Positions 2,385-37,173 of a stretch of DNA of 64,000 nt are shown one piece after another; within the stretch, counting starts at the first letter, position 1, and each line of letters begins with the position of its first letter. The stretch is from contig JAQBYT010000001.1 of NCBI GenBank assembly GCA_027622665.1, forward strand, positions 384,001 to 448,000, in the 5' to 3' direction. The DNA comes from Verrucomicrobiota bacterium. GTDB lineage: Bacteria; Verrucomicrobiota; Verrucomicrobiia; Opitutales; Seribacteraceae. The notes beneath the pieces were generated by a model, which was not told the DNA's origin, searched no databases, and saw only the letters and a list, made by a program, of their open reading frames with translations. Both the position numbers and the translations under genes were made by a program.

Positions 2385-3068
2385 ATGAAATCCCAACATT
2401 ACATACTATCCCTTGTCCTAGGAATCATTTTCTTCTGTTCCCGCCTTGTTGCCGCCCCGGGCTTCGGTAAACTCCCAAAGCCTGACGAGCTTGTTTCCCT
2501 AGACGCCGTTACTCTGCAGACGAGCACCGGCAAATGGTTCACCGTGACAGTCAGTTTTACTCCGAGAAAACATCCCAACCCCGAAAAGGCTTTCAATGAG
2601 GATTTCATAGATGACGTGAAGTTGGATCTTTATATTTGCTTGCGCAATAATTCTCGTGAAAAAAAATTCAAGAGGGAACGGAAAAGGGACTTCATTGAGG
2701 CCGACCTGTATGACTATTACCATTCCAGCGTCGAAATTATCACTCTCAAGGTAGACAACATTCGAAAGGAATTACATTTCCTTATCTCGAACGAATTAGC
2801 AGAACGAGATGGCTTTAATCGAACAGTTAAGCCGGTCGGTCATATCGTGGAGATGACCCTAGGTGGGGTGCCCATCGCATTTAAGGAAGGAATAGTTTTT
2901 GAAAAGCATCGCCAAGAAAGCATCCTCGAAAAATTCAAAGAATTTGCCCAATCGAAGTCCAAGGCGAACGAGGGTTTATTGCTGCCCGCTCATTTGGTGA
3001 GCGCAAACTACTTGTCAAACGCACCGGCAGTAAAGATTGGTCCAAGCTCTTCTGCTTCGGGGCTCTGA
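2385..3068 (+). CDS. Exported protein, first gene of the pilus-like cluster (positional equivalent of Akkermansia Amuc_1102)
   Basis: Signal peptide MKSQHYILSLVLGIIFFCSRLVA; position upstream of PilM-like gene. Confidence 0.55.
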   Translation: MKSQHYILSLVLGIIFFCSRLVAAPGFGKLPKPDELVSLDAVTLQTSTGKWFTVTVSFTPRKHPNPEKAFNEDFIDDVKLDLYICLRNNSREKKFKRERKRDFIEADLYDYYHSSVEIITLKVDNIRKELHFLISNELAERDGFNRTVKPVGHIVEMTLGGVPIAFKEGIVFEKHRQESILEKFKEFAQSKSKANEGLLLPAHLVSANYLSNAPAVKIGPSSSASGL

Positions 3069-3120
3069 TCAGAACCTCTTTCGACAAGCACCCGAACAAA
3101 GTTTTTTCAGCCAGCCTAGA

Positions 3121-4881: not shown

Positions 4882-4909
4882 TTTTAAACTTTCCGCATCT
4901 CGCATCTTG

Positions 4910-6145: not shown

Positions 6146-6150
6146 TCCTC

Positions 6151-7503: not shown

Positions 7504-7670
7504 TTGTTTCGGAAAATGATCAGTGGATACGAAACAACCATTTTTACAGAGAAAAGGTTTCTATTTTGGAAGTTGACCCCGCAGATCTAAAACTGTTCCT
7601 TAATTGACAGGAATTATCAAGCTTTTTGAGCGTATCTCTTCTTTTTAACTCCATACACCTATGCCCGTAG

Positions 7671-10600: not shown

Positions 10601-11435
10601 GGTAGATTCATTGATTGACTGGACGGGTTCAATTTTAGGCATAAGGGAAGCAACTCTTTTGGTTAACGCCCTAAAAAGAAAACAAGGTACGGATTTGCTA
10701 AGTGCCCCACGGGTCACGGTCATGGATGGTCAGCCGGCAAGTATTACTATCGCTCAGGAATTCATTTACCCCACCGACTGGCAACTCCAGCAACAAGGAG
10801 GGGCAGGAGGGGGAGCAGGGGGAGCAGGTGGAGGCATACAGTTCCCTCAACCTGCACTTCCGCAATTTGATACTGTAGCACCCGATGATGAGCAACCTGG
10901 TTTTCGTGAAGTCGGTGTTGTCCTTGACGTCACTCCAAGGATCGAAAAATACAATTCAATCGCATTGGAGATAAATCCTAAAGTAACAGAGTTTGATGGT
11001 TTTATAGAATACGGGGGGCAGCAGATTGCGGCAGTCCAATCCTTTTCCGGCAGCGGCATAGTAACTTCGCCTTCAGGTATTCTCATGCCAATATTCTCGG
11101 TTCGAAAAGTGAGCACAACTGTAACCATCTTTGATGGTGCAACCGTTATTATTGGAGGGCTTACTCGCGAAGAAGTAAAGACAGTAAATGACAAAATTCC
11201 GGTTCTAGGGAATATTCCCCTCATCGGAAGACTATTTCAGTCGCAGGCGGAAAGTTATCAGAAGCGAAATTTGCTTATTTTCGTCTCGGCAAGTATTGTG
11301 AGCAGAGGTGGTTCCCCAGTGCGAGAAGTTATTCAAAACATCTCCCCGCAATCGATATTCAAAGATCCCGTGATCATGACGCCAACAGGCACGATAAGAA
11401 GACAGTTTAAGGGTGAGCTCGGAGGAGCCCCGTGA
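7671..11435 (+). CDS. Secretin (PilQ/GspD family, Amuc_1098-like) with Pro-rich N-terminus and TPR-like helical region
   Basis: QVEIETKFLEV, DLLSAPRVTVMDGQPASI, FREVGVVLDVTP, GATVIIGGL, KIPVLGNIPLIGRLFQS...KRNLLIFV. Confidence 0.93.
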   Translation: MKSLIADLARRKRAVVRTVFLLVGICAVSSGYAQSPPPLPPLPLVGEPVPGPDGFPPLPGLGGGEPAPVESPPLLPPLPGVLEPVDISPEAVDPLPLIDAGGPGVFPLGLIPSEPSTLPETELPPPLADGSNLSEPGKPDPVEVSGFSLPPVTDNAGLLRLLDEVRIRLRREDYQGAQALTEQTLRTFAETAENAFYLRQFRREQTNLYYRMAHKALKEKRYSLASQYLGHYQENVARDAEDRKRAREVRVGTQGKSDVSLVGKLVEELDEAKKELAEIRAKSGLPESDAKVDYERIMAQEQQELVKAKSRAERLLKKARIDSADGQYELAKDQVDEALSFLPKNVATIALISDLYKAKQQILWYRIGEAMQKGRVGNVQILVLEYQDVEKERRSEEVATLGIEEGPDFEGEMKKAREKAEQQAKLAERMLAGAKGNIRDKEYGKAQQDLVKITNYLEPSTRTWPIILDAAITRNQINLEKAEDARKAKDWELANQYTDEYRTGLLQDRNVMGAGDMDLGRPGLESTKGKGAVDNLMKRSDRMRGRIEDDMKNPYRRHISEFSPEREDQLEDLGKLLMRAKVQFINNDLTGAQETYRLIEARYSENYEAKQMLRRIAQVRQEESYLGYLQTRESMLEEINREWERPKVFERQIDDVKPVQETGNNLLEKLKTINIPAVQFFESPLPEVVAELQRLAKQFDFAEQDPTKKGVNIVVLQEAGEPPPNVTITLNGMALDRMISFISEMVGWSFDVRNDAVVLSKTGAGGGRPIGLETEFYEVSQGMKKRMIGEPAAGAGGADPFAPPGGGGGGGAAEDGAKIRDFLEQAGIPFEDARGHKFVFDDFQMIVTHQRRFLDLIERILERLDQDSSRQVEIETKFLEVQEGVLDEISFDWNMRWGARQPVFDSATGMPTIDSGGVEQFKYNKNFRGNSRTLALAHAPSGVERNIQITYDQNPEANQQFGQPIPMMPGNIGIGAGVDSLIDWTGSILGIREATLLVNALKRKQGTDLLSAPRVTVMDGQPASITIAQEFIYPTDWQLQQQGGAGGGAGGAGGGIQFPQPALPQFDTVAPDDEQPGFREVGVVLDVTPRIEKYNSIALEINPKVTEFDGFIEYGGQQIAAVQSFSGSGIVTSPSGILMPIFSVRKVSTTVTIFDGATVIIGGLTREEVKTVNDKIPVLGNIPLIGRLFQSQAESYQKRNLLIFVSASIVSRGGSPVREVIQNISPQSIFKDPVIMTPTGTIRRQFKGELGGAP

Positions 11436-11826: not shown

Positions 11827-14800
11827 ATGTCTTCCTTGCTGAAAAAGACGGCTAAAGTGAAATTATTGTTTCGCGGTGCAGTATGGATGATTTCGTTAGC
11901 TGGTATTATCGGAACAGTGGTTTTTTTGCTCTCGCGCCTGCCCGAGAATACTATTTCCACTAAAAAACAAGACGACCCCGTTCTCGCCCCTAATGGTACT
12001 CCCCGGGCTCTGGGAAAAGTGACTTTACCTAATGTCCCTTCGTCTGAATCTCTCGAATGGTGCTCTCCATCTCGAATAATCGCGACTAAAGCCGATCCGG
12101 TCTTCAAGCTTTTTGGCCAGTGGGTTGCTGCTCGTAAGGAGGGCAGGGCGGAAGTCGAGAAAGGCGTTGTTTTGGCGAAGGAGCGCCGGGAGGTTCTCGT
12201 TCACTTGATCCGTACCGACCCGGAGGCCGCCTTGTCCTTGGCAGTTCCGGAGATCGACAGGCACGATCTACCCAAGGCCATTCTCCCCTTCTTGGGCCGG
12301 TGGGTGAATACTTATGCGGATGTCGAAGCGGTTCATTTTTGTTTGGATCCAAACCACTTGGGCGGCTTCATCAGGCACACCGTCATTCTTCCTGATGGTC
12401 GTCGCCTGAAGGCATCTCTTTACGGAAAGCGCGAAAAACTTCCCACGATGAAGGGCCTCGCCATTCGGGGCATCGCTGTGGGCGATAAGTTGGCGGTGGA
12501 CGAAAATCCTGTCCGCCGCCTAGGAGAAACCGAACTTCGAGATCGCCAACTAGAAGGCTTGGCCGCAGTGGAAATTGCCGATGCAATATATGAATTTCCA
12601 CGCCGGGAAGGTGTTCTTGCCTTTGAGCGTCGAGTGCGTGAAGCCGAGCGCCGGGCCGGGCGTCATCGAGTGCGTTATCCGGTAATTGCCAGCAGTTTGG
12701 GCTCGAGTACGATTATTGACCTCAAGTACAAGGTGGTTACCGTGTCTTCCGATTGGGAGACGGCCAAGGAAGATGCGGAGAACAGCGGTGGACGGTTGGT
12801 TTGCATCGGTTCCGCTCAGGAAAATGAGGATGTTCGCAAGCTTTTGGCTGATGCCAACGTCATGGGCTTGTTTCCCGAATACAACGGCACGGTGCCATAT
12901 GCCTGGATCGGGGGGACGGATGACGAGAATACTAGTGGAAGTTCTTTCAACAAAGTTACGGACTCCACCGAATATTTTGACTTGAATGCTACGGAAGGAA
13001 ACTGGACTTGGCTCGACGGGACCACTTTTGCCGCCTATTCCAACTGGGCAGACGGCGAAAACGATAACGCAACGAACCCCGTGCTTGCGGAAGCGGAAGA
13101 CTTTGCCGTTATGGACTGGAATGCCGGCGGTCTCTGGCGGGACCTAAAGCGAGATTTTCATTTGCCATACGTTATAGAGATGGATCTTGGTGATCAGCCC
13201 GATGCGAGTGACGTTCCTATTTCCGACAACCGTAAAGTGTTGGTTATACGAGCTCGTTTTCAGGATGAGGGCGTGGAATACGCCGGATCGTCCAAGCCTG
13301 TTGTTGACCAGGATGGCAACATAATAAATCCCGACAAACAGCAAGATGTTTTCGAGCCCGTTACCGGACTTCAAGTGCGTCAAGAAATGGAAAAAGTACG
13401 AGAATTTTATCAACGGAATTCGGATGGCAAACTGAACCTGGACTATGTAATCACAGGAACCGTGACGATACCCTACAAAAGGTGGGAACAGCATGAAATG
13501 TTTGGTGACATCGCGACTGTGACCACTCCGGATTTTATGGATGCAGCGATAGTCATAGGAGCTCCAATGGCGCGAGCTGCGCAGGTGAGCCCCGAGGATT
13601 GGGATTTCAGTGGACCAGCCTTCAACGGAGTGATCGGCATAGAGGTGAATGCCAGTGGAGGCGGCTACCTTTATCCACCCCTTGTTCGAATCGAGGGTGG
13701 CGGAGGCGCAGGAGCGAAAGCCGAGACCTTTCTTGATAACAATGGTAGCATTGCATCGGTTTTGGTTACGGATACGGGAAGGGACTACACCTCCGTTCCC
13801 GCGATTACGGTCGAAGGGGCCCATCAAGACCCCAATGGTGACGCTAATGCCACGCTGAGTGCTAAGGTCGGAAGGACTGCGGTTTCATGGATATCCATCA
13901 CCACGGGGGGTAACCCCGGAGGGGTGGGCATGGTTGGCGCCCCGGGCTCACACGTCAATGCAGCGACATGGGATGCTGGTGTTGCGGTCCATGAGCTTGG
14001 GCATAACTTCGGGTTCCAGCATGCCAATCGGTACGAGTCCGTTGGCGAGAAAGCAATTAGCGACGAAGGCGGAACGATCGATTACGGCAATCCATATTCC
14101 GTCATGGGCACGGGAGGCATTGGAGCCGACCTTACGGTGGCAGCCAAATCCGTTGCCCAGTTTGGCTACACGACCAGTTCTGCCACGGGAGCTGACGTGA
14201 CCGTCCTTGCCACGGGAGCTGACATTGTGGCAAGCAGATGGCGTGAATTGAACGCCACCCGGCAAAACGTTTTTCGAGTCTACCGACACGACCACGGTTC
14301 AGCCCCATATCCATTGCGGTTAGGGTCCTACCATGTGATCATACCGACCGATGTCGACTTGCCTACTGATTTCAACGGGAGCATAACCGTGGCTATTGGC
14401 GGTCCGGGCACGGAGGCGACTGCCTCCGCCTCCGTTACCGGGTCTGACCGTAGTTACATTTTGGAGATTGAGAATCCCGGCATCGGTTTTTCGGAAGAGC
14501 CGAGAATCGAGTTGATTAACGAACAAAACGCCACTCTATTGCTTGATCCTGCTTGGATTCAGGTTTTGGCGGGCCAAAAATCGATAAAAGCCGAATTGCG
14601 AGATCGCTCACCGTCTTCCGCCAAGGGATTGCGAGCCATTCGTTTGTCCGCCTCCTCGAAAGCCCCTTACTCCTCCTACCTTGTCTCTTACAGGCAAGCC
14701 GCAACAAAAAATGGCCTGAACTTATTAAATGCCGATGGCTCCGACAACATTTTGCTGGATCTCACCCGCAACACGCCTGACGATTTTAACGACGGTTCCC

Positions 14801-17800
14801 TAATGATAGGGCAGACCTATTCGGACTACGACAGCGACATACACGTCACGCCCGTATCGCGAGGTGGAAATTCACCGATGGAATATTTGGAAGTCGCCGT
14901 GAACGTGGGGACAGTTGCGGCCGAAAACGCATCCGCCCCATTATTCTCCCTGCAGACAAGTAATCTTCGCCCGGAGGTAAATCAAGGAGTCGAATTTACC
15001 GTCATGTTGACCGGGGATGCCAACCTTTCGCGATATGCCTTCTCTTGGTATTACGACGAGAGACCTCTTATTGGTAACGCCTACCTAAACCAGCCAACAA
15101 TAATAAAGACTTTCGACTCCGTGGGGAACCATAACCTCCGTGCAGTGGTTTCCGACATGAAGGGTGGCGTATCCTCGCAAACCGTAGTCCTTGCCGTGGG
15201 CGAGCCCGAGCAAGCCGGCATATCGCGCATCGAGGGCGTGGTCGAATCCACCACCGGACCCGTGCAGGGGGCAAGGGTAGTCCTGCAAAAGGCTCCCGTC
15301 ATTCAGCATGTGGTCACCGTCTCGGGCGACCTTATTTCTTCTCGGATACCAGGGGGACAGGCGTACGCCACGAAATTCCTCATTGATGGTCAAAGGGCGC
15401 CTCGTCTCGAATTTCGACGAGGAGAGATTCACCGTTTTGAGTACGAGCCGTCCGCGGAAGGTTATCCAATCACTTTTTATTCCGCCCCGGACAGCGAGCC
15501 GGCCAAGGTGGAATTGAAGCTCATTTACTCTCCCAGAGTGGAAGAGCCGGGTTCGGGTTACAGGCAAAATCCGGCAGTCGTGCTGGATGGCGGAATTTTC
15601 GACTCCTACGAAAGCAACCTCATTCGTTCCTACGTCGAATATCTTGAGGAGAATGGTTCGAGCACGACCCTAGCCAGGATTGTTTACAAGCCATATGCAA
15701 AATCACTCCTGATGGATACCGGGGTAGAAGCTATACATACTCGCAAAGTGGCGGATACTCAAGGCGGCGATGGGCATCACCCGGCTTCCCCGCCTTCGGT
15801 CACTATTAGTCGGCAAAGTCTCTGGGAAGATTACAGCGATTTAAATGCCACGGCCAAAGCTTACGTAGATGGAGTGGGTACCATCTTCGTTCTAGAGGCC
15901 GGTGCGGGCTATCCGGATTCTCCATCCATCGCCGTTGTGGGGCGCGGCGTGGAAGCATCCGCATCGACCCAAACAATGGGGGTCACAAACGAAAAAGGCC
16001 AAACGCAACAGGACATGATCAAGAAAGTTTCCGTTGTCGACCAAGGTCAAGGTTATGACCTCAACACTACCTTGGCGACCGCCTTGTACCCCCCCAACCC
16101 TTTTGCCTACTGGTCCTTCGATCGCGAGGAATCCTTATTCCGCCAGAATTACTATCCCCGCAAGGACAAGCTTATGCTGGAACCCTCCCCCGGCTGGCTC
16201 CGACCCATTACCCGGAGCTTGAAAGCCCATTGGTCGATGGACGAGGAGAATTCCACCATGGAACTGAACGCTACCATCGCCGATCATCACATCGGGGCCA
16301 CTCCCGTTCTCGGGCAAAAAACCGATTACAACGCCACCATGGAACTGAACGCTACCATCGCCGATCGCTCCGAGTGGGGCATTCGAGGTCGAGCCATACG
16401 GCTTCAAGGTAATTCTACCGTCGAGGAATATCTCGCTCCTGATTCACCTAACAAATTTCTTGGCGATTCCTTTACGGTTTCCCTTTGGGTGAAGCCCGAT
16501 GGTAGCGGCAGTTTTCACGGACTGGCCTCCCAGGCCGGGACTGGGGATGCCTTTTCGCTCTACTGGAATACCGTTGATTTCATTGGAATTCTTTATCAAG
16601 CGGAGGAAAATGGCGGTTTGGTAAGCGACGTTGTTTTGGAGGGAGGTGATTTAAATGCCGGTGAATGGACACATGTCGCCTATGCCTTCGACGAAGACTC
16701 CGCGACCGCGAGCATGTATGTGATGGGTGAACTGGTGGCCAGCAAGACCTTTACTCTCGCTGGCAACTTCAACAAAATTTCTGGGCGTGCCTCGGACTTT
16801 ATTCTAGGTAAGGCCTTTACGGAAACCTCAAGCACCGAATACCTCAACGGTTTTCTAGACGAAGTCAGCGTCTTCGACCGTGCCTTGGAGCCACGTGAGA
16901 TTCGCCAACTGTCTGGCGATTTGTTTCTCGATCTTTCCGGACAAAACCGTCACGGCGTCGCCATGGATATGCCGATGAACGATCCCGACGAGTTGAACGC
17001 AGGGGTGGTGGCGGGCAACCAAAACGACGGCCTCGACCTTAGCGGCGCCCGATACGTCGACCTTTCGCAGACCGCCCAAGACTTTGCCGCGCTCAGCACG
17101 GGCAGCGTCAGCTTCTGGTTCAAGACGACTTCCTTGGAGGACGGAACGCCCGCTGACGGTACTATTCTGGCCGCCTCGGACAAAGATGCCCCCGATTCCT
17201 TCTTTCGACTTATGGTTCGCGATACGGGTCAGCTCCAGTTTCATGTGTCCAACGACGGGGTGGAGGTTACGCGCTTTTATACCGAGAACATCTTCAACGA
17301 CTTCAAGTGGCACCACGGGGTGCTTGTTGTAAACGAGGCGGACTCACTGTTTTACGTCGATGGCATAGCCGTGGGGTTGCGTATTGCAGGACAAGGGCAA
17401 AGCGCTCCCCGTGGCTTTTTCGCCGACATTGAGAACATCGATTACATGGGCATCGGTCGCCACCAAACGAGCGAGGCAAACCAAACCAATTATTTCAGCG
17501 GCGAACTCGATGAAGTCTGGATTTTCGATCGTGTTCTCGAGGCTCCGGAAATATCTTTTTTACACGATTTGCGCCCCGAAGTTAAAGATGTCTTTCGAGC
17601 CTCGCTGGAGGCTCGCGTGGATTCAGTGGGAACGGTGAAAGTGACTGCCCCCGGAGCAGGCTACAAGGAGACCCCGGCGGTAACCTTTTCTCCGGGCGAT
17701 ACAGTCGGTTATACGTGGATAGGCTCCGCCGAGGACGGGAACGTGTCTCGGTGGTTGCCCTTGAACTTGGCACCCGGGTCCAGTCAACCGGATGAGTGGG

Positions 17801-20800
17801 ATGCCTCCGCCACCTACGTAAAGGGTGATTTGGTTCGTTACCGAAACAACGCTCTAGCCAATTGGTATACCTATTCCGCCTTTCGCGAGAACAACGACAA
17901 GAAACCCCTGGAGGCGAACCTCATGGAGAACAATTCTCGTCACATTTATCCCGATGCCGTGTGGCAAAGGCATGAACGCAGCGAGGGCAGTATGACCTAC
18001 GGAGTTCTCTATCTCCAGCCGACAGGCCTGGAAAGCATTCTGCTAACCAAGGACATGGGTCCGGCGGCGGTTTCAAATAATTTCAACCACTTTCTCCTGC
18101 CTGACGGCAACCCAGTCGAGCGGAGATACGTCGAATACGTCGGCGAAAACGGAACTGCATACGAGCTAAGCGGAGGTCATGTGTGGGCTCATTCATTTGC
18201 GTCTTCCCAATATTATTCACTACCGAAGCCTGGGCCCGCGTCTGGCGTTTTTGGATTTCGGGCTCCGCCCTCGATTGTCATCGAGGGCTCCGAAACCGAT
18301 GACAACGCCACCGGTAGTCATCTGTTCTATATTGATCCGGTGGAATCTGTTCTCATTACAGATCCCGGAAACGGATATTTGGATCCCGAAGGGATTGCTG
18401 TCGGGGATGTGCGCTTTCGCGGAAAGGGCTCTACCCCCCCTCGGTTCGAGGCCATAATGAGGGAACAAGCCATCCATGGATTCATTTTAAGAAGGCCGGG
18501 CACCGGGCCCTATGACTTCGACGTCGAAGGCAACTCCACCCTCGACGGCATTTTTGATACGCTTACGGAGAGAGGATTGGGCGGTCTCAGCGATGGTGAA
18601 AGATCTCTGAGTATGCTAAAGCCAGCCGCATTAGCGGGAACTCCGGAAATAACGACGAAAGATAACGGCGACATTGTTTATTATCCGGCATCGGAGGGGT
18701 TTTGGGGCACTCGCGACGTTTTCTATGACGCCAAAGACGGTCAATTGAAGTTGCGCAATCCCGAGCGACTGTTGAGTTTCATTGGAGACGGCACAGGAGA
18801 GAAGCCGCCCGTGGTCGAGGTATTTCTCTCCGACAAATTGGACGTGGAACGGGGCGTGGCCCCCCGAAAGTACGAAGTCAAGGCTATGCGGATAATGCCC
18901 GCGGAAGACCTGGGATCGGCGAAACCCGACTACGGTTCCGGCTGGGTGAAGCCGCCCACGATTTATTTCGATTTGAATGCGACCGCTGACCGCCAAGTTA
19001 ATGCGAGCAGCTTGACTTTTACGAACATGTTGTCCCACGTACAGATACTGGACAGTGGGCTCGGCTACTCCGTGCCGGTGGAAGTTAATTTCCACGGCGG
19101 GTATGACATCCCATGGAATTACAAGGACTTGAATCATTCCCGAGCCCGCATTCTGCCCGACGAGGTCGATGAGAACGGAACCCTTTCGGCGGATGCCATC
19201 GAGTTGCTGGATCCCGGTACCGGCTATAGTCGACCTCCCTTCGTTTCCATAACCGGCGGCGGAGGAGTCGGTGCTCGCGCTCGTGCTTTTCTTAATGACA
19301 GCGGGGAGGTCGCCGCTATCCTCGTTACGAACGGTGGTCGCGGCTATTTCAATCTGGACGCAAACAACACCCCCAAGGCGGTCTTGGTTTATCCCGCGGG
19401 ACAAGCGACAAAGGATGCCAACGTTACTATGCGCTTGGGTGGCTCTCTCGACGAAATTCCCGTGCAAGGCTTGGAATCGACCCGTTTACACCATATTGCC
19501 CCATGGGTACTGATTACGGACAACGCCGGAACGGGCAAAGGCGCCACTGCATTTGCCAAGGTGGTGAACGGTCGTATTGAGAAAGTGATCGTGGAAAACG
19601 CAGGTAACAGTTATCTCGACCCACGCATTGAAATCCTTACCGCGTCTCCAAATAATGCAGATGCATTATTTTTATCCAACCCCAATTACAGGGACGAGAT
19701 CGACGGCTGGATACCATTTAATGCCAGATGTTCAGCGATTTTCAGCAATGGCCAGATCGTCGAAATCATCGTAGATAATCCCGGGTCGGGTTATGCTAGC
19801 CCTGAGATTGTGGTGGCGGGGACGGGCTCGGGCGTGGAGGCAATACCCGTGTTCGGCGATACAGGCAAGATCGTCCGCATAGTTTATGACGATCCTGCTC
19901 TCAAGAACGAGGAACTGAGCCCAGTGTCCTCGCCCTCCGGGGCGGGCCAGGGATTTTCCGAACGTCCATGGGCATTGGGCGAGGTGGTGCGCGTAACAGT
20001 GGTGGACGAGTATTCCTACTCTCGAGCCAATCATTTTCACGAAGCTGCTTTTCCATTGAAAACGGCGGACCTCTTCATTGGCTTGCCTGCCACGCGTGAC
20101 TCCGCGGGTGATCAAGTTTCCGAATTCACGATCCATGACCATGGCATTGGTTACGGTGCCGATGCCCCTTCCATCCGCATCGATTTCAATTCCAGCCATG
20201 CCAAAAGTTTCAGAGACGCTTGTGCCACAGCTTTCCTTACCAGGGGGTTGAGCGAGATGGTTCTCGAAGGCAACGGAACCTATGAAGATTCCAACGGCAA
20301 GTGGCGGTCCGTTTTCGAAGAAATTCCGGTAGTAGAAATTCATCGCGCAAACCTTGAAGAAGAAGATGCCTACAAGCTGACAAGTGTTGGGCGCAACGGG
20401 GATATCGATTACGATCCATTGGCCCACCGGCGTTTCATAGACGTAGTGGTCGACGATGCGTTTCCTTCTTACTCCAGTTATTCTCTTTCGGATTGGGACC
20501 GCGAGGGTTTGGGTGGCGAAATTCACACTCTCGATTCGGCCCCCTCCCTTGATTGGCGTGTGGTGACCAAGTGGGAGCCCGGCAAATACCGGAAGGGAGA
20601 CGTCGTATGGTGGGAGACCGATGCCTACGAAGCTCTCGCCACCTTTGTCTCGGGGAGTTTGAAAACGGAATCCGCCGGAGAAGACGGGGACCAGTTTTGG
20701 CGCAAGCTTAACGGGCAAAGCGGCGCCATGTCGGCCTTAGGTGTAGTAACAGCCTTCAACCATGAATTTGGATCTAGTAGCATATCTGTTTCTCGGGTAC

Positions 20801-23800
20801 GGAGGGAGAATGGTTCCGCAGCGTTCTTTCACATAGGTGACAGATCTCAAGAGACTGAAATTCTTGGTGAAAACGTATATACTTGGGCGTACCTGCCCGA
20901 CGCTTGGATTTCCTATACCGACAGCAACGGTTATTATTCGTTTCCGAACCTCGAGCCGGGATTGTACAATGCGGCCGTGCTTGCGGAGGATTCCAACTTG
21001 GAAGAAATTACTTTTCGCGAGGATGGTAATTCGACCGTTACCCATGTGGTGTACGTGCCGGGCATTCCATCGCTTAGGCTGGAAACCGACGAAAATGGCG
21101 TAGGCTCGAGCAGTCTCATTTGGCCGGAAGACGTATTGCGTCTGGGAGAGTCGGCTTCCACCAAGAAAATCCTCAAGGGGATCGGAGCCGGGTTTCGCCC
21201 CGGGACTCTCCCTGTGTTTTCGATCACTGCGGATTCCAAAAACACCGGCAGAGGGATACCCAATCTTTCGGTAACCGTAAATCCTGACGGTTCCCTCGAC
21301 ATAGAGACCGTGGACGAGAATTCATCCAATCATAATTCGGCTGACAGTTTCACGGTGTTTTACGGCTCCACAATTTCAGGGCTGAACTTCAAGGAAGATT
21401 ACTTTTTCGATCGGCTTGACGATGCCTATTGGATGGGAAGAAAGGCTGCAGTGGATGCCAATGCGTCCCGACTCATCATCTCTCCGTCGGCAGGTGTGAA
21501 TTCGGTGGAAATGCCAATTTCATCTTCTGAGGCGGGCGACTTGAATATGACCTTTTCGGCAAAGGGCTACGACTGGAACGGTACGCTTCTGGATACCGAT
21601 GACATACAGTGGAAACTGGAGTTCGACTTCAATTCGACCGAGGGGAACCTAACGAAGTTGGCATCTCTCAGCACTGTTGACGGCAATTCCACAACTTTGA
21701 CTTTGCGCTCGACTCTGCGATCGGGCAAAATCGCCTTGGTTCGGGTGGATGCCGGAGGCACAGGTTATTCGGACGACAATTCCACCCTTGTTGAAATCTT
21801 TGGCGATGGGTCGGGCGCCTTCGCTCGCATTTCCGAAGTCAACTCCACCGATGGTGCAGTCAAGGCAATCGAAGTGGTTGAGGGCGGAAGGGGTTATTCG
21901 GTGATTTCCGGCATTCGTTTGACCCGCCCGGAAGGCCAGATCGGAACCGATGCCAATTTGACCGCCTTAGTTGGCGGAGGGCTTTGGCTGAAAGCGACCT
22001 TGGGATCCCTTGAGCAAAAGGTGCGACTGGAGGCATCCCATAGGGCTCAACTGTCGGAAAAGGAGCAGTGGTCGGATCTCCACTTCGATACGGTTCGGGA
22101 GGATTTTATCGATTGGAATGACGATAACGACAGCGACGGACTCAACAACTCCTTGGAGTTTAGCTATCGAACCAACCCTTGGAACGCCGATTCCGATGGC
22201 GATGGTCTTAGCGACGGAAACGAAACGACCTTGATGACCGACCCCAATAATGCCGATACCGATTCCGATGGCTTGCTCGATGGCGTCGAAACCAATACGA
22301 ATACATATGTTGATGTAAACAATACCGGAACTAACCCGAAAAATCCTGATACCGATGGGGATGGCTGGCCCGATGGGCTTGAAGTGAGTTTTGGTCTGGA
22401 TCCTCACAAGACGGAAAAGGGCGGAGCGGGCATCTCCGGAATGATTTACTTTAAAGGAGAGATGAACGGCACCCTCTATGTTTTTGCCATTCCCGAGGGC
22501 GAGCCTCCTTTCGCTGAGGAGACGGCCGTCAGTGAGTTTTTGGGAGGCGACAAACCTCTCACTCCCTCTTCCGCAACCTTTTATTTTTTCAAGAACCTGC
22601 CGGCTGGAAAAAAATACGAAATACATGCTTTTATTGATCGGGGCGAAAGTGGTGACCCAAGTAACAAGGTTTACGATTACGGTGAGCCGGTCGGCAGCTA
22701 TTCCGGCTCGTGGGACGGGAATCTTTCCGAGGACCGCTCACAGGTGAATTTTGTCGTTAAAGATCCGCCGCCTCACCTCACGTTGTTACCAATGGTTGGG
22801 TCTGTTATGGGGGGAGTCGATGGCAAAGAAGAAATCGCAGTTTATCTTAATCCCGGGGTTAAAGTTTTTCATCTGAAGCCTGTGGCCAATGATGATTATG
22901 ATGGGATAATTGATCCTAAAACCGTTAGTCCCAGCAGCACCTATCCCTTGGATGGAAACGCTACAGGGATAATTACCATCACTGAGTTGGACGCAACCGA
23001 AGGGAGCGGAACCCTAGAGGTTTCATCTACCGCTCTGCCGGGAGTGTACCACTTGATCTATGCGGCTGCCGATTCTGCGGGTAGCGCTAGTGCCATTACT
23101 CGGATAATCGTAATTCGCGACAGCATTCCGCCGGAGATTTCATTGTTTCCCGATGAATCAGTAGTAGTGGCCTATGAATATGAAGCGGGCACGAAATGGA
23201 AAGATCCGGGCTATTCGGCAATTGACGTCGTTGACGGCAACTTGACTCACAAAGTGGGCGTCGCGCTACCTTCGGGTTGGGATTCTGGTGACGTGGGAAT
23301 CGTTTTGGGGTTTTACAATTTAAATTATACTGTTCAAGACATCGCAGGAAACCAAGCGCTGGCCACTAGAATAGTGGAAATTGTAGATACCAGTGCTCCA
23401 GATCTGTTACTCTTTGGCAGTCCGTCCATGAACCTGAACAAAGGTGAAACCTTCCTTGAGCCCGGTTATTCGGCTCTCGATACTGTGGACGGCGATCTTA
23501 GCAACAGGGTGACGGTTTCAGGATCTGAAACTTTAGAAGAAAACGTTACCGGAACTTACGAACTTAACTATTCGGTAATCGATGATTCCGGCAACGAGAT
23601 TAATAGCACACGAACCATCTACGTAGCAGACTGGAACTACACCATTGCGGGCAAGGCGATGGATGGATATCTCGTTGGGGCAAGCGTTGTTTTCGATATT
23701 GACGGAAATGGTACTCACGATCTGTCGAGCCCAGTTCTTACCGATGAAAGCGGCGCTTTTTCCTTTGCCTTTACGACGGAAGAATTTCTGATGACCGATA

Positions 23801-25200
23801 CCAATACAAACGGAGCCATAGATCCCGGAGAGGGTAGGATACTCGTTTTCGGGGGGACCGATTCCTCTACGCTTGAGCCTTTTACTGGACTTTACGTAGC
23901 GGATGCCAACTCAACGGTCGTAAATCCCCTGACCACTCTTTCCTCGGCTTTTGTCGAGCAAGGGCTTTCTCGGGAAGACGCCAAGTTAAAGGTGGCGGAC
24001 GCACTGGGGTTGTCAGCTACCTTGGACTTGTACAATTATGATCCGATTGCTGCAGCCGCGGAGGGAGATGCCAATGCCAGTCAAGCTCTTGCCGCAAGCG
24101 CTCGGATCGCCAACGCAATTCGGCAGGGGACGGCCTTCGTGAAATACGCCTCGGACGGGAATGCTTCGGGAAAAACGATCTCCACTCAATTGATTACGGA
24201 AGTTGCCGCCAAAATTGCCGACGGGACGGTTTCTCTCTTTGGCGATGCGAGCGAAATGCAGAAAGTTCTTACAAGCGTGGTAACGACTTTGGGCATTGCC
24301 GGAGTCACCGACGAAGATTTGGCCGGAGCGGCCCAAATGTCGGTGGTTGCTGATGGAATGATCGTCGAGTCTCTCATCGCCAAAGGGACTAACCCCGATA
24401 AACTTGCGGTCGAATTGGCAAAGATTCAAGCGGTCGTCGAGGATAGCATAGTACAGGGGTACGACAAGTTGCGGCTCGAAGGCGGAACACCCGCCACCCT
24501 GGCCATCGCCAAAAGCAAGGAATTGCTTTCCGGGCAAACGTCCGACTACAAAGGGAGCGTTAACATCTTCCCGCCCACGGCGTCCAACGCGGTGGCGGCC
24601 CTGCCTTTCGACCAGTGGATTCAGGGAGCAATCATTCTTAATCTTCATGCTAACGATGCGGATGGAGATACCGTAGGCTTTTCGATTAGTTCGGGCAATC
24701 CCGATGCCGACAAGGATGGGGTCGCCGCTTTTTCCTTGAGCGAGCAAGGACAACTCTTGGTGGCGGATGCGGACGAAGCTGGCTACCTGTCTGTCGGTGA
24801 AGCCATGGTCGTCGCGTTGCGTTTGACCGACGGAAAAGGCCTTTATGGGACAGCAACCGTTACCGTGAAACGCGGCAATGCTCTTGCATTGAACACCGCA
24901 GAAGTGGAGCAGGCCCAAAACTGGCATCAATCCAGTTGGTTGGGAGACTTTTTTACCAATGGCTCGTCTTGGGTGTTTCACGAGAGCCTAGGCTGGCTCT
25001 ATGTGGTTTCGGACAGAACAGGAGGGTTTTGGTTTTGGGATGTCGGGCTAGAGGCATGGTGGTGGACGAATTCAACCTTCTTTCCCCACTTTTATCTTGT
25101 TCGGCAAACAGGCTCAGGTTGGGGATATTGGGATCTAAAAGCGGTTCCGCCGATATACTTCGATTTTAACGAGAATAGTTGGAAGGAGAAAACTAAATGA
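11827..25200 (+). CDS. Giant (4457 aa) multidomain surface zinc-metalloprotease/adhesin: N-terminal TM and putative prodomain, C-type lectin, metzincin (M11-like), PKD, GxGY repeats, 2x LamG, CBM5/12-like, TSP3-like Ca-binding repeats, DUF5011-like Ig, cadherin-like, Trp-rich C-terminal module
   Basis: CTLD (WETAKEDA..GGRLV..AWIGGTD..EGNWTW, ~12727-13180); HELGHNFGFQH at 13990-14022 with YGNPYSVMG Met-turn; LamG FTVSLWVK/WTHVA/LDEVSVFDRAL; DSDGDGLSDG repeats ~22117-22410; PGYSAIDVVDGNLT. Confidence 0.85.
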   Translation: MSSLLKKTAKVKLLFRGAVWMISLAGIIGTVVFLLSRLPENTISTKKQDDPVLAPNGTPRALGKVTLPNVPSSESLEWCSPSRIIATKADPVFKLFGQWVAARKEGRAEVEKGVVLAKERREVLVHLIRTDPEAALSLAVPEIDRHDLPKAILPFLGRWVNTYADVEAVHFCLDPNHLGGFIRHTVILPDGRRLKASLYGKREKLPTMKGLAIRGIAVGDKLAVDENPVRRLGETELRDRQLEGLAAVEIADAIYEFPRREGVLAFERRVREAERRAGRHRVRYPVIASSLGSSTIIDLKYKVVTVSSDWETAKEDAENSGGRLVCIGSAQENEDVRKLLADANVMGLFPEYNGTVPYAWIGGTDDENTSGSSFNKVTDSTEYFDLNATEGNWTWLDGTTFAAYSNWADGENDNATNPVLAEAEDFAVMDWNAGGLWRDLKRDFHLPYVIEMDLGDQPDASDVPISDNRKVLVIRARFQDEGVEYAGSSKPVVDQDGNIINPDKQQDVFEPVTGLQVRQEMEKVREFYQRNSDGKLNLDYVITGTVTIPYKRWEQHEMFGDIATVTTPDFMDAAIVIGAPMARAAQVSPEDWDFSGPAFNGVIGIEVNASGGGYLYPPLVRIEGGGGAGAKAETFLDNNGSIASVLVTDTGRDYTSVPAITVEGAHQDPNGDANATLSAKVGRTAVSWISITTGGNPGGVGMVGAPGSHVNAATWDAGVAVHELGHNFGFQHANRYESVGEKAISDEGGTIDYGNPYSVMGTGGIGADLTVAAKSVAQFGYTTSSATGADVTVLATGADIVASRWRELNATRQNVFRVYRHDHGSAPYPLRLGSYHVIIPTDVDLPTDFNGSITVAIGGPGTEATASASVTGSDRSYILEIENPGIGFSEEPRIELINEQNATLLLDPAWIQVLAGQKSIKAELRDRSPSSAKGLRAIRLSASSKAPYSSYLVSYRQAATKNGLNLLNADGSDNILLDLTRNTPDDFNDGSLMIGQTYSDYDSDIHVTPVSRGGNSPMEYLEVAVNVGTVAAENASAPLFSLQTSNLRPEVNQGVEFTVMLTGDANLSRYAFSWYYDERPLIGNAYLNQPTIIKTFDSVGNHNLRAVVSDMKGGVSSQTVVLAVGEPEQAGISRIEGVVESTTGPVQGARVVLQKAPVIQHVVTVSGDLISSRIPGGQAYATKFLIDGQRAPRLEFRRGEIHRFEYEPSAEGYPITFYSAPDSEPAKVELKLIYSPRVEEPGSGYRQNPAVVLDGGIFDSYESNLIRSYVEYLEENGSSTTLARIVYKPYAKSLLMDTGVEAIHTRKVADTQGGDGHHPASPPSVTISRQSLWEDYSDLNATAKAYVDGVGTIFVLEAGAGYPDSPSIAVVGRGVEASASTQTMGVTNEKGQTQQDMIKKVSVVDQGQGYDLNTTLATALYPPNPFAYWSFDREESLFRQNYYPRKDKLMLEPSPGWLRPITRSLKAHWSMDEENSTMELNATIADHHIGATPVLGQKTDYNATMELNATIADRSEWGIRGRAIRLQGNSTVEEYLAPDSPNKFLGDSFTVSLWVKPDGSGSFHGLASQAGTGDAFSLYWNTVDFIGILYQAEENGGLVSDVVLEGGDLNAGEWTHVAYAFDEDSATASMYVMGELVASKTFTLAGNFNKISGRASDFILGKAFTETSSTEYLNGFLDEVSVFDRALEPREIRQLSGDLFLDLSGQNRHGVAMDMPMNDPDELNAGVVAGNQNDGLDLSGARYVDLSQTAQDFAALSTGSVSFWFKTTSLEDGTPADGTILAASDKDAPDSFFRLMVRDTGQLQFHVSNDGVEVTRFYTENIFNDFKWHHGVLVVNEADSLFYVDGIAVGLRIAGQGQSAPRGFFADIENIDYMGIGRHQTSEANQTNYFSGELDEVWIFDRVLEAPEISFLHDLRPEVKDVFRASLEARVDSVGTVKVTAPGAGYKETPAVTFSPGDTVGYTWIGSAEDGNVSRWLPLNLAPGSSQPDEWDASATYVKGDLVRYRNNALANWYTYSAFRENNDKKPLEANLMENNSRHIYPDAVWQRHERSEGSMTYGVLYLQPTGLESILLTKDMGPAAVSNNFNHFLLPDGNPVERRYVEYVGENGTAYELSGGHVWAHSFASSQYYSLPKPGPASGVFGFRAPPSIVIEGSETDDNATGSHLFYIDPVESVLITDPGNGYLDPEGIAVGDVRFRGKGSTPPRFEAIMREQAIHGFILRRPGTGPYDFDVEGNSTLDGIFDTLTERGLGGLSDGERSLSMLKPAALAGTPEITTKDNGDIVYYPASEGFWGTRDVFYDAKDGQLKLRNPERLLSFIGDGTGEKPPVVEVFLSDKLDVERGVAPRKYEVKAMRIMPAEDLGSAKPDYGSGWVKPPTIYFDLNATADRQVNASSLTFTNMLSHVQILDSGLGYSVPVEVNFHGGYDIPWNYKDLNHSRARILPDEVDENGTLSADAIELLDPGTGYSRPPFVSITGGGGVGARARAFLNDSGEVAAILVTNGGRGYFNLDANNTPKAVLVYPAGQATKDANVTMRLGGSLDEIPVQGLESTRLHHIAPWVLITDNAGTGKGATAFAKVVNGRIEKVIVENAGNSYLDPRIEILTASPNNADALFLSNPNYRDEIDGWIPFNARCSAIFSNGQIVEIIVDNPGSGYASPEIVVAGTGSGVEAIPVFGDTGKIVRIVYDDPALKNEELSPVSSPSGAGQGFSERPWALGEVVRVTVVDEYSYSRANHFHEAAFPLKTADLFIGLPATRDSAGDQVSEFTIHDHGIGYGADAPSIRIDFNSSHAKSFRDACATAFLTRGLSEMVLEGNGTYEDSNGKWRSVFEEIPVVEIHRANLEEEDAYKLTSVGRNGDIDYDPLAHRRFIDVVVDDAFPSYSSYSLSDWDREGLGGEIHTLDSAPSLDWRVVTKWEPGKYRKGDVVWWETDAYEALATFVSGSLKTESAGEDGDQFWRKLNGQSGAMSALGVVTAFNHEFGSSSISVSRVRRENGSAAFFHIGDRSQETEILGENVYTWAYLPDAWISYTDSNGYYSFPNLEPGLYNAAVLAEDSNLEEITFREDGNSTVTHVVYVPGIPSLRLETDENGVGSSSLIWPEDVLRLGESASTKKILKGIGAGFRPGTLPVFSITADSKNTGRGIPNLSVTVNPDGSLDIETVDENSSNHNSADSFTVFYGSTISGLNFKEDYFFDRLDDAYWMGRKAAVDANASRLIISPSAGVNSVEMPISSSEAGDLNMTFSAKGYDWNGTLLDTDDIQWKLEFDFNSTEGNLTKLASLSTVDGNSTTLTLRSTLRSGKIALVRVDAGGTGYSDDNSTLVEIFGDGSGAFARISEVNSTDGAVKAIEVVEGGRGYSVISGIRLTRPEGQIGTDANLTALVGGGLWLKATLGSLEQKVRLEASHRAQLSEKEQWSDLHFDTVREDFIDWNDDNDSDGLNNSLEFSYRTNPWNADSDGDGLSDGNETTLMTDPNNADTDSDGLLDGVETNTNTYVDVNNTGTNPKNPDTDGDGWPDGLEVSFGLDPHKTEKGGAGISGMIYFKGEMNGTLYVFAIPEGEPPFAEETAVSEFLGGDKPLTPSSATFYFFKNLPAGKKYEIHAFIDRGESGDPSNKVYDYGEPVGSYSGSWDGNLSEDRSQVNFVVKDPPPHLTLLPMVGSVMGGVDGKEEIAVYLNPGVKVFHLKPVANDDYDGIIDPKTVSPSSTYPLDGNATGIITITELDATEGSGTLEVSSTALPGVYHLIYAAADSAGSASAITRIIVIRDSIPPEISLFPDESVVVAYEYEAGTKWKDPGYSAIDVVDGNLTHKVGVALPSGWDSGDVGIVLGFYNLNYTVQDIAGNQALATRIVEIVDTSAPDLLLFGSPSMNLNKGETFLEPGYSALDTVDGDLSNRVTVSGSETLEENVTGTYELNYSVIDDSGNEINSTRTIYVADWNYTIAGKAMDGYLVGASVVFDIDGNGTHDLSSPVLTDESGAFSFAFTTEEFLMTDTNTNGAIDPGEGRILVFGGTDSSTLEPFTGLYVADANSTVVNPLTTLSSAFVEQGLSREDAKLKVADALGLSATLDLYNYDPIAAAAEGDANASQALAASARIANAIRQGTAFVKYASDGNASGKTISTQLITEVAAKIADGTVSLFGDASEMQKVLTSVVTTLGIAGVTDEDLAGAAQMSVVADGMIVESLIAKGTNPDKLAVELAKIQAVVEDSIVQGYDKLRLEGGTPATLAIAKSKELLSGQTSDYKGSVNIFPPTASNAVAALPFDQWIQGAIILNLHANDADGDTVGFSISSGNPDADKDGVAAFSLSEQGQLLVADADEAGYLSVGEAMVVALRLTDGKGLYGTATVTVKRGNALALNTAEVEQAQNWHQSSWLGDFFTNGSSWVFHESLGWLYVVSDRTGGFWFWDVGLEAWWWTNSTFFPHFYLVRQTGSGWGYWDLKAVPPIYFDFNENSWKEKTK
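16253..16366 (+). repeat. Perfect 33-nt direct repeat (16253-16285 and 16334-16366), 81 nt apart, encoding TMELNATIAD
   Basis: CCACCATGGAACTGAACGCTACCATCGCCGATC occurs twice. Confidence 0.95.
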
Positions 25201-28200
25201 AAAGAATGAATGGCAAATGCCAAATTGCCTTTATGGCTCGACTAACCTTACTTTGCCTAGCTTTTTTCGTGAGCCACCGGACTCTTAGGGGTCAGGTGTT
25301 GGTTCCGGATCTCAGAATCGACTCGGATGATTTCATCGAGGTTTTCGTAGGAGGTACTTTTGACGTAACTTTTCGCATTTTTAATGACGGAACGGAAGAG
25401 ATCTTCGCCGGGGAAAGCATTACTTGGGCTGTCGAGGTCAATGGCCCGGACGGGCAAGCCGTACCTTCATTAAGTAGAACCGGGCAAATCCTAACCGGAC
25501 TGCCCATGAATCAAAGTACGCCCGATGAAACAGTAAGCCTTCGCATGCCATGGGCGCAAGCCGCCCAGTGGAGCAACAACGCCAGATGGACCATCGCAAC
25601 ATCCGTGGTTACTCCAAGAGATGTAAATGGGACCAATAATCGCGATACCTCCACTTTTTCCTTGGTTATACCGGATGTCACTTTGAATAATTTAGTGGGG
25701 CCCGTAGCCGCTCGACCCGGGCGAAACGTCAGCGTTTCAGGTACTGTAGCCAATGTCGGGCGAGTCCAAACGCAACCGAATGTCTACTTCCGGGTAGAGG
25801 CAAGGTTGCTGCAGAATGGAACGGAGGTGGACAAGCAATCGATAGTCTTACCTAATCAAAGCGCACTCTCTCCTTTTCCTTTTGATAGCGGGGATACGAT
25901 CGACTTCACGATCAATGAATTATTCATTCCCATAGACGGCAACGGCACCTACGACGTGATTGTGAACCTGGATGCCGGATCACCTGATATTTTAATCGAG
26001 CATACGGAAAACAACAATCAAGCAACTGTTCAGTTTGACGTAAGTTCAAGTGCAAGCATACAGGTCGTCGACGGTAGTTTCTTTAGTGATACCGGCACCT
26101 TTCAGGGGATGGCCCCGGCTCACTTTCGTTTTGCCGTTCGCAATGTTGGAACGGGCCCCGTTGGGGTCGGGGATGCCTTTCAGGCAACCATTGCTCTCTC
26201 TCGAGACCAAAGTGGGATTGATGCCGACGATTTCATTTTACGTGAATTCGATCTTGGAGGAAGTGGGCTGGGTTTAGGCCTTAGGCCCAATGAGACCGTA
26301 ACGCTTGACTGGATTCAGAGGTTGCCCGACAGTTTCGAAGGGGATTTTTACATTGTGGCGAATTTGGATGGTCAAACATTTGTCTCGCAACCTACTCCAT
26401 CCATCACCTTGCGATCAAATAATTCCGGGGATACCATATCGGTGAGTGAGGGAAAAAACAGCTGGAGCTCTCGTCCTTCTTATGATCAAACGGGCCGATA
26501 CGTTGCCTTCGAATCTTCCGTTGGCGGAATTGTTAACATATTCCTGCTGGATACAATCTCCAACCAGGAAACTCAGGTAACGAGGAGCTTTAATAATGCT
26601 GCAGCCGATGGATCTAGTTTTGCTCCCAGCTTAAGTGCAGATGGAAAATTCCTAGCCTTTCATTCCAGCGCTTCGAACCTAGTTCCCGGTGATACTAACG
26701 ATCATACGGACGTTTTTCTTTTTGATCGAGAAGCCAATGGAATTTTTCGTCTGTCGACAAGTGTTGATGTCGGCAGTCCTGATGGAGGTAGTTATTACCC
26801 TTCGGTCAACGGTGACGGCTCGGTAGTGGCTTTCGAATCACTTGCGTCAGACCTTAGTGCTACGCCGCAATCTTTTTCGGGAAGCAATATCTTTGTTTGG
26901 GACTCAAACGGAACCACCTTAAACAAACTATCACCAATTACCGCGGCGGGAGACTTCGCAAGCTTAGACGCCGATATCAGCGAGGACGGGAATCGCGTCG
27001 TGTTCACCTCTTATGCCACCAATTTCAACCTATCGAACTTAAGTTCATCGGACAACAACGAGTATTCAGATATTTTTCTTTGGGAGCGAAATACCTCGAA
27101 AATGTATTTGGCGAGCGTGACTTCAGGCCAAGCAAGGACAACCGGTGGCGCGTCTTCGGAGTCCGTAATCAGTGGCGACGGGAAGGTCATCGCCTATCGT
27201 TCTTCCGCAAAAAACCTTGTTACCGAGAAGGGTATTTCAACGATCGAGATTAAGGATGCAGGAGTGGGCTATACGCGGACTCCTTCCATTGCCATAACCG
27301 ATGCGAGCGGTTTAGGTTCAGGGGCAACTGCGGAAGCCCATATCAACACTTATGGAGAGATCATCAGGGTCTCGGTGTTATTGCCGGGCAAATTATATAA
27401 AGAGCCCAGAGTAACAGTGGTGCCCGACCCTGCTGATGTCGGGCCTAGCCGCCTTGCCATTCTTGAGGCTCGTCTTACACACCCCGAAGGCGATGTTTAT
27501 AGAGTGCCCGCGCAATCCTTGATTGACGGTCAGCCCGAAATCAGTCGAGCGAGTGAAAGTGTACTTTCGGTTGGAGGCGACAAGGGAAGTCGTGAGCCGA
27601 CCCTCAATTACGATGGTAGTTTGTTGGCCTATTCCACACAGGCGAGTAATCTCTTGGTTGACAAACTCGAGCGAGAAGATCGTAGGGTTTTTCCGAATGC
27701 AACCTTTAGGATGGCAAGAGCAAGAGCTGTAATCGGTGGCCCAATTGGCGAAATCGAGGTTCAGAATTCCGGCGAAGGGTATCAAGACGGACAGCTTCGA
27801 ATAGAGGATCTTTCCGGTAGCGGATCCGGGGCTCTTGCCCTATATCACGTTGATAATTACGGACGTATTGCCGACATATCCATCTTTAATTCGGGGAACA
27901 ACTACGACTATTCCCAAACCATGATATCCATAGACAACCCGAGGGCGGGAACGGGCTTTCAGTTGAAGGACATCCGCCATCAGGTCACCAGTGGCATTGG
28001 AAATAATCGATCCGGCGGCGGGACCATTCTTCGCCTGGAAATGGATGACAATGGTTTGGGTTACACCAAAGAACAGATTCTCATGCAGGGTGCGGGCATA
28101 ATTATCGACGGAGATGGCGCTGATTTGGACAATGATGGAAAGCCCGATGCAAAGGTAAATCCCGATCGTATCCATTTGGGTGACAATGGTGAGGTTTTCC

Positions 28201-37151: not shown

Positions 37152-37173
37152 TCTGCAAGCTTTACGCAACAGC

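Follow-up and report, generated by a model that had tools for sequence, protein, structure and literature searches.

Dense D/E-x-N-x-S/T motifs in giant surface proteins and a PglB homolog suggest N-linked protein glycosylation in a marine family of the Opitutales

The 64,000-nucleotide stretch analyzed here (contig JAQBYT010000001.1, positions 384,001 to 448,000; "the window") belongs to the genome of a Verrucomicrobiota bacterium of the order Opitutales (G000) and encodes a giant surface protein of 4457 amino acids (aa). Most N-x-S/T sites of this protein have an acidic residue at position −2 and are thus "extended" sequons, D/E-x-N-x-S/T. These motifs, a PglB-like oligosaccharyltransferase (OST) encoded elsewhere in the genome, and the distribution of both are the subject of this report. 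The features of the giant gene, numbered by the window, are as follows.

11827..25200, + strand: giant surface protein of 4457 aa, predicted to be the main acceptor for PglB, judged by 55 extended sequons among 69 and by the counts in homologs
12877..24168, + strand: stretch from E351 to S4114 with all 55 D/E-x-N-x-S/T motifs, about 1 per 68 aa
13990..14022, + strand: zinc-metalloprotease motif HELGHNFGFQH, aa 722-732, presumably metzincin-like; weak match to M6 metalloprotease TIGR03296, under the cut-off
16444..17523, + strand: two LamG/concanavalin-A-like domains, aa 1540-1692 and 1776-1899 (Pfam PF13385, E 4e-41; PF02210, E 1.5e-5)
23410..23625, + strand: Ig-like surface domain, aa 3862-3933 (Pfam PF16403, E 6e-26)
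24898..25194, + strand: C-terminal domain, Trp-rich and about 100 aa long, without extended sequons, common to 34 open reading frames (ORFs) of the genome

An N-terminal hydrophobic segment and a PKD domain are also present. Of the 69 N-[^P]-[ST] sites, 55 match [DE]-[^P]-N-[^P]-[ST]; a first-pass annotation made from the letters alone had counted the same numbers by hand and judged them to be beyond chance. Composition-preserving shuffles, which it had proposed as a check, bear this out: 2000 whole-protein shuffles gave a mean of 4.0 extended sequons (standard deviation, 1.9; maximum, 11), and local shuffles in 20- and 50-residue blocks, 1000 each, gave a mean of 4.8 and a maximum of 12, which rules out local composition bias as the source of the excess. 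A tandem-repeat artifact is ruled out because the 11-mers flanking the 55 sites are all distinct (55/55). Asparagines outside sequons have D or E at −2 in 26 of 155 cases. The extended sites start with N353 (nucleotide 12883) and end with N4112 (nucleotide 24160), 346 aa before the C terminus, leaving both ends of the protein free of them, as had already been noticed; the N-x-T sites N56, N4378, and N4415 in these end zones are all without the acid at −2. The N-terminal gap is not conserved, with the first site located at aa 102-117 in three of seven orthologs. Motif density peaks from aa 3000-3250 onward, with 10 sites in the region of the aa 3250-3500 bin; a structure model of aa 3030-3400 (mean predicted local distance difference test score, 56; predicted template modeling score, 0.36) was too weak and was not used as evidence, although it placed most sequons outside strands.

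Variants of the motif were compared with their expectation in the giant. While [DE]xNx[ST] reached 12.1-fold, the ratio was 0.59 for [DE]xDx[ST], 0 for [DE]xQx[ST], and 1.1 for [DE]xGx[ST] when N was replaced, and the controls [DE]xNx[^ST], [^DE]xNx[ST], and the reversed motif yielded 0.99, 0.49, and 0.44, respectively. The shifted controls [DE]Nx[ST] (3.1-fold) and [DE]xN[ST] (3.5-fold) were raised, which was read as spill-over from sites such as DENST. By residue, DxNxT (22-fold) ranked above ExNxT (17-fold), DxNxS (9-fold), and ExNxS (2.6-fold), so that T was preferred over S. Plain sites without the acid at −2 were not in excess, with ratios of 0.49 to 0.94. In 27 proteins of relatives, proline at +1 abolished the excess (5 sites against 4.7 expected, ratio 1.05), and proline at −1 did not fully exclude it (20 against 4.7); judged from these counts, proline at −1 appears to be partly tolerated. 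At the alignment columns of N1340 and N1413, orthologs of the giant carry EPNAS, EPNAT, DPNST, or EPNST, which likewise suggests that proline at −1 is tolerated. The sequon rule of PglB from Campylobacter jejuni is given as D/E-X-N-X-S/T (PMC12229607), and the motif preference of the giant matches it, apart from proline at −1.

Evaluation of this excess needs to consider that the motif might be structural, an Asx-turn, a beta-turn, or a Ca-binding loop of beta-rich repeats, with PglB being coincidental. The protein is indeed beta-rich, and DxDxDG-type repeats occur 5 times against 0.3 expected. Matched proteins were picked by domain (Trp-rich tail or protease region) and not by sequon. In PglB-bearing relatives, 27 such proteins contained 771 extended sites versus 91 expected. 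Among genomes in which no PglB was found, a set that includes G129, whose STT3-like gene is divergent, and also G065 and G108 with sub-threshold matches, 44 proteins contained 37 versus 56 expected, and the highest single value was 11 versus 5.9 (p 0.04). The same types of protein thus lack the excess in PglB-free families. The Ca-binding motif Dx[DN]xDG was enriched about equally with PglB (12.8-fold) and without it (11.4-fold), but the sequon was enriched 7.9-fold with and 0.72-fold without, and the Ca-binding or turn alternative, which the first-pass annotation had named as a possible way out, failed at this point. All 17 long homologs of the giant carry 37 to 65 extended sites (one is 98% identical and non-independent), and none of 23 unrelated giants sharing Ig or other repeat domains reached p<0.01. 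For the gene located two positions upstream of pglB, 37 of 55 sites are extended among the orthologs from 13 family genomes, versus 3 of 41 among those from 17 other genomes, where the proteins are shorter. The motif occurs in unrelated folds (SecDF-like, FKBP-like, and SecG-like proteins, labeled by sequence inspection), and its positions are not conserved although a structural role would require that. In favor of a structural role, the family-level contrast represents one lineage. The homolog contrast already largely refutes this explanation, which is hardly probable at all.

In the whole genome, 2958 ORFs of at least 150 aa contained 1591 extended sites versus 705 expected. Enrichment at p<0.001 was found for 51 ORFs; 26 had at least 10 extended sequons, with a maximum of 79 in one ORF. 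Secreted giants lead the ranking, some of them with a mis-called start or located at a contig edge; housekeeping proteins that face the periplasm come next. Three of the four sites of the SecDF-like protein are in the two long soluble loops of what we take to be its membrane topology. Compartments were compared using ORFs of 150-800 aa off contig edges, chosen to avoid selecting on sequons: cytoplasmic-like ORFs were at expectation (ratio 1.02, p 0.38), versus 1.82-fold for exported-like (p 1e-19) and 1.68-fold for membrane ORFs (Fisher p 5e-9), with the export classes resting on a crude hydrophobicity rule instead of a trained predictor. The difference between secreted and cytoplasmic proteins that a periplasmic system would predict, and that the first-pass annotation had suggested looking for, is present. 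In PglB-negative Opitutales loci, extended sequons of exported-like ORFs are depleted (26 versus 52 expected), possibly as a composition effect.

Alternatively, another enzyme may glycosylate the sites, either a cytoplasmic HMW1C-type N-glycosyltransferase or the products of adjacent GT4 genes. HMW1C-type enzymes glycosylate adhesins encoded next to them, and two GT4 genes lie behind the giant and its 3984-aa neighbor in 5/5 relatives examined. These enzymes are cytoplasmic and follow no −2 acid rule, whereas the excess requires D or E at −2 and is missing from cytoplasmic-like proteins; close orthologs of the second GT4 also exist in genomes that show no excess. No match to PF18071 (HMW1C) was obtained in G000, and no control genome was matched either. 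It is very improbable that such an enzyme is responsible.

A candidate enzyme for the periplasmic reaction is encoded outside the window, on contig C43, next to a sequon-rich gene.

C43:2660-5920, − strand: pglB, 1086 aa, no internal stops, the only STT3 match in the genome
C43:1-2435, − strand: gene directly after pglB, running off the contig end, 43 of 45 sites extended

The genome searched was 93.5% complete with 0.13% contamination. The first-pass annotation had seen no OST gene in the window and had proposed a search for STT3/PglB, and an intact PglB with the WWDYG motif at residues 630-634 was the result (PF02516, E 1.6e-20, over the cut-off). Its best match was C. lari PglB (E 8e-41 by single sequence, 2e-137 by profile), its relatives in the PDB were C. 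lari and C. jejuni-type PglB entries only, and the top NCBIfam match was PglB (E 8e-58), with archaeal STT3 at E 0.002. In a profile alignment to 5OGL, D123, E451, and R463 correspond to D56, E319, and R331; R463 lies 12 residues past E451, the same spacing as between E319 and R331 in 5OGL. The equivalents of D56, R147, D154, D156, E319, R331, and R375 plus the WWD are invariant in 38/38 Opitutales sequences. Nine of 11 checked positions and the remaining Trp of the WWD are invariant in these 38 and in 38 further homologs with a length of 560 aa or more; the I572 equivalent is present in the C43 enzyme and kept in 34/38 of each homolog group, the Opitutales exceptions being 4 gaps. Like R331 and R147, the other residues of this set have catalytic or substrate-binding roles in PglB. 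Automatic annotations already label some of these proteins as oligosaccharyltransferase or STT3-domain protein.

The Opitutales enzymes measure about 1040-1140 aa; they are extended at the C terminus and have a Cys-rich insert that follows the R331 equivalent. A CxCxxC insert (aa ~470-477) just past the R331 equivalent is visible in 5/6 family rows of the alignment. The extension (aa ~990-1040) is LysM-like in look, and the homolog P0081 has a precomputed PF01476 match. The gene product following PglB has beta-propeller-like repeats and then more than 30 tandem 8-residue units, each of them an extended sequon. In family genomes, pglB is the third gene after a conserved two-gene membrane-protein operon. 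Contigs of 4/4 marine metatranscriptomes cover parts of pglB and the upstream genes; contigs do not demonstrate transcription, and DNA carry-over was uncontrolled.

With the G000 enzyme as query, matches were obtained in 12/13 sampled family genomes and in 0/237 genomes from other Opitutales families. In the whole family, PglB was found in 62/75 genomes from all five genera, and in 24/26 high-quality genomes counting G000; a profile search over 250 genomes of the phylum found none. The sole negative among the 13 (G206) has a contig that ends inside the gene before pglB and keeps a sequon excess (57 versus 31 expected), so that this miss is probably an assembly gap. The membrane-gene pair is present without a following pglB in 9/9 other-family genomes, once near a contig end, which fits a single insertion of pglB at the base of the family. 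Judged by the flagellar genes reported in PMC8857213, this family is probably MB11C04. A PF02516 search returned 10 weak matches in the order outside the family, and the six that were fetched are different proteins, STT3-like but divergent and missing WWDYG. Some of them carry, by our own sequence reading, an N-terminal Ser/Thr-kinase-like or DnaJ-like fusion and C-terminal TPR-like repeats.

L194:282-4379, L196:3270-7361, L197:2936-7066, L198, and L199: divergent STT3-like proteins of family f2, no WWDYG
L195:3700-6288: STT3-like protein of family f23, no WWDYG, archaeal AglB-like in look

Among the best 80 of 226 homologs, those with names came from marine Opitutales (TMED, UBA, and single-cell genomes), one Pirellulales metagenome-assembled genome (MAG), one Pedosphaera MAG, and many Campylobacterota. 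In parts of the first 13 contigs of the Pedosphaera MAG (L065, G466), which has a related PglB, exported-like ORFs contained 37 extended sites versus 16.6 expected, all ORFs 99 versus 61, and 3/305 ORFs reached p<0.001, which lends partial support from outside the Opitutales. The related enzymes of this MAG and of the Pirellulales MAG suggest further scattered acquisitions in the Planctomycetes-Verrucomicrobia-Chlamydiae group. The flanks of Campylobacterota pglB genes, which encode mostly enzymes, had 80 extended sites versus 79 expected.

Seven orthologs of the giant with 33-41% identity have 43-60 sites each, and the site is kept at 104/318 aligned positions. At the kept sites, D and E are swapped in 34/104 and S and T in 43/104, with different residues at the x positions in about 60-65%. 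Taken from these alignments, selection may act on motif and density more than on position, as it would for a shield. The low retention of 104/318 could also mean that the system is real but its occupancy low, with PglB modifying the most flexible sites only and few glycans on the giant. Bacterial PglB requires an accessible sequon on a folded protein (PMC6025236), and in C. hepaticus 46 glycopeptides came from 35 proteins, with at least two sites in 9/33 proteins (PMC9816155). The homologs of the giant argue against this, since sites without a use would be lost until about 4-6 per protein were left, the level of relatives without PglB, and yet 37-65 are kept in 17/17, most of them at 33-45% identity, which indicates selection on most sites. 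Low occupancy is considered unlikely.

As far as can be judged from sequence, the motifs very likely serve as acceptors in N-linked glycosylation by a PglB-type system that is fixed in this marine Opitutales family. The existence of such a system in this lineage had been proposed by the first-pass annotation and is now supported by the pglB gene, the shuffles, and the compartment contrast; of the four conditions that the annotation had named as refuting it, none held. Proteins would reach the periplasm by Sec, and PglB would transfer a glycan from undecaprenyl-pyrophosphate onto the asparagine, with WWDYG binding the Ser/Thr at +2 and R463, the equivalent of C. lari R331, binding the Asp/Glu at −2. 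The giant, as an adhesin with LamG and Ig domains, a zinc-protease domain, and the Trp-rich tail, would then arrive at the surface with tens of glycans, which may serve as a shield or a stiffening coat in which density weighs more than position.

Several points weigh against this assignment, in addition to the crude rule behind the export classes. The C43 enzyme scores 197 bits, versus the equivalog cut-off of 1300 for NF050801. In C. lari PglB, R331 binds the −2 acid (PMC4894442, PMC12229607), by a salt bridge to Asp (PMC4894442), but relaxed enzymes also keep R331, so that R331 alone does not fix the −2 rule (PMC4894442) and its equivalent is consistent with that rule without being proof. 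Because all PglB-positive Opitutales form one clade, their members are not independent and the comparison of genomes with and without PglB is essentially one contrast, close to a single evolutionary event. The Pirellulales MAG (L054, G465) has a related PglB and yet little excess (50 versus 40, 0/251 ORFs at p<0.001), even though its regions were partly selected by motif matches. Finally, no conserved pgl locus was found, and a PglK-like flippase (E 3e-92) matched in 16/40 family genomes and scored 310, versus an NCBIfam cut-off of 1000.

The search for a flippase suggested by the first-pass annotation thus gave a PglK-like candidate, below the cut-off and patchily distributed. It is located on contig C13 with genes for a 227-aa PglC-like transferase, a dehydratase, a LegC-family aminotransferase, a WecA-like protein, and GT4 transferases, a cluster whose gene content varies among relatives. 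When genes from the flanks of Campylobacterota pglB were compared with G000 by BLAST, the matches were general polysaccharide genes, of which many lie on C13, and they did not form a clear set of orthologs. The polysaccharide cluster on C13 is the best candidate for the glycan donor. Candidates for the initiating transferase are three PF02397 genes, unlinked to pglB; a WcaJ-like gene near an exosortase is present in 5/5 relatives. As to a pgl cluster beside pglB, the recurring neighbors in Opitutales loci L014-L053 do not read as pgl genes; neighbors were judged from sequence starts, and the NCBIfam scan in G000 covered two upstream genes and one downstream gene.

Like the Pgl systems of C. 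jejuni and C. lari (PDB 3RCE, 5OGL, 6GXC), that of the Opitutales has a single-subunit STT3-family OST with the same key residues and a D/E-x-N-x-S/T sequon limited to exported and membrane proteins. It differs by the phylum, a pglB outside a pgl cluster, the apparent partial tolerance of proline at −1, and the longer enzyme with Cys-rich insert and extension, compared to 713 aa in Campylobacter. Acceptors of C. hepaticus carry one to three sites each (PMC9816155), the predicted ones of the Opitutales tens. The nearest large group of homologs among the best 80 of 226 is PglB of vent and marine Campylobacterota (Nitratiruptor, Sulfurovum, Sulfurimonas), with 27-32% identity and identical invariant residues; OST activity is reported second-hand for the Nitratiruptor and Sulfurovum enzymes (PMC6025236). 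In a FastTree phylogeny of 54 rows, with thinned Opitutales rows, midpoint rooting, and long-branch warnings, the enzymes of the Opitutales group together with full support, apart from the clade of the Campylobacterota; the tree shows neither a donor nor a direction of transfer. Helicobacter pullorum has its pgl genes scattered over five loci and the same sequon (PMC6025236); pglB is likewise apart from a single pgl cluster in the Opitutales, but in place of scattered recognizable pgl orthologs no family-wide conserved donor pathway was found among the genes tested.

Archaeal AglB and eukaryotic STT3 produce dense N-glycan coats on S-layer and surface proteins, and the predicted dense coat of the Opitutales would resemble these in outcome. 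The archaeal and eukaryotic enzymes use plain N-x-S/T (PMC12229607), whereas plain sites are not in excess here and the enzyme scores as PglB. The system has the features of a PglB-type system that can be examined in sequences, with the exception of the donor pathway, and stands outside the strict family with a clustered pgl locus.

In the literature covered, characterized bacterial PglBs come from Campylobacterota, Desulfobacterota, Aquificae, and Deferribacter. No PglB or OST N-glycosylation in Verrucomicrobiota was found in the running text of openly available full-text articles, whose homolog lists could still include a verrucomicrobial sequence; the single mention of Verrucomicrobia in the text available from PMC4973528 is about tree labels and stands in a referee section. 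The system as a feature of the whole family, like its acceptors, is new in that it was not found in print, while the gene itself is already in databases. An entire marine family of the Verrucomicrobiota is thereby added to the strict-sequon systems, with site densities more than 10-fold those in the Campylobacter data covered. An OST that evolved to load at least 50 sites on one chain would be a candidate for glycoengineering, and sequon excess in homologous proteins predicts the presence of an OST from sequence alone. If the sites are occupied, such coats matter for recognition by phages and grazers, for resistance to proteases, and for the pools of glycoproteins in the sea. In a broader scenario, for which the chances are about even, a planktonic marine family gained PglB once and rebuilt its surface proteome into giants and "bottle-brush" proteins of 8-residue repeats with tens of N-glycans each, forming a density-selected shield with fast site turnover, a species-variable polysaccharide donor, and a high-throughput OST tolerant of proline at −1. 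This would be a bacterial counterpart of archaeal S-layers and viral glycan shields.

The other genes of interest in the window are the following.

2385..11435, + strand: pilus/secretin operon with PilM-like, Amuc_1100-like, and Amuc_1098-like secretin genes (NF042912, E 2e-105, below the cut-off)
25197..37151, + strand: second giant surface protein, 3984 aa, with CARDB, Big_7, TolB-like propeller, and Trp-rich tail; 17 extended sequons among 56
36805..38307, + strand: GT4 glycosyltransferase; as called, the ORF overlaps the giant at its end, and translation probably starts further downstream
39372..40499, + strand: second GT4 glycosyltransferase, conserved within the family but shared with families for which no PglB was found
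61492..62970, + strand: flagellin with 6 N-x-S/T sites, 0 extended, a useful negative control

For the 3984-aa neighbor, a weaker enrichment of about 18 extended sites in 60 had been estimated; the enrichment holds (shuffle mean 4.2, maximum 11), and the exact count is 17 of 56. The Trp-rich tail that ends both giants is found in 70/251 genomes of the order, both with and without PglB. It matched 0 NCBIfam families and only unnamed Verrucomicrobiota clusters, and it may be a candidate sorting or anchoring signal of the Opitutales. The operon directly upstream of both giants resembles the Akkermansia Amuc_1098-1101 pilus/secretin cassette. Its proteins are without sequon enrichment (upstream secretin, 0/3 sites extended). 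The Amuc_1098-type secretin operon could possibly provide the export route for the giants; because of the sequons, their export would probably be a two-step process via the periplasm.

That two GT4 genes follow the giants was correct, and the pair is syntenic with them in the relatives examined, but specificity for the glycosylation system could not be upheld. The second GT4, which alone was searched, has orthologs, mostly at 42-50% identity, in 20/116 genomes from other families in which no PglB was found and is therefore no marker of the PglB system; the pair as a specific part of that system is unsupported. A GspG-like prepilin gene (38336-38896, − strand) separates the two GT4 genes in the window, and they are adjacent in five relatives.

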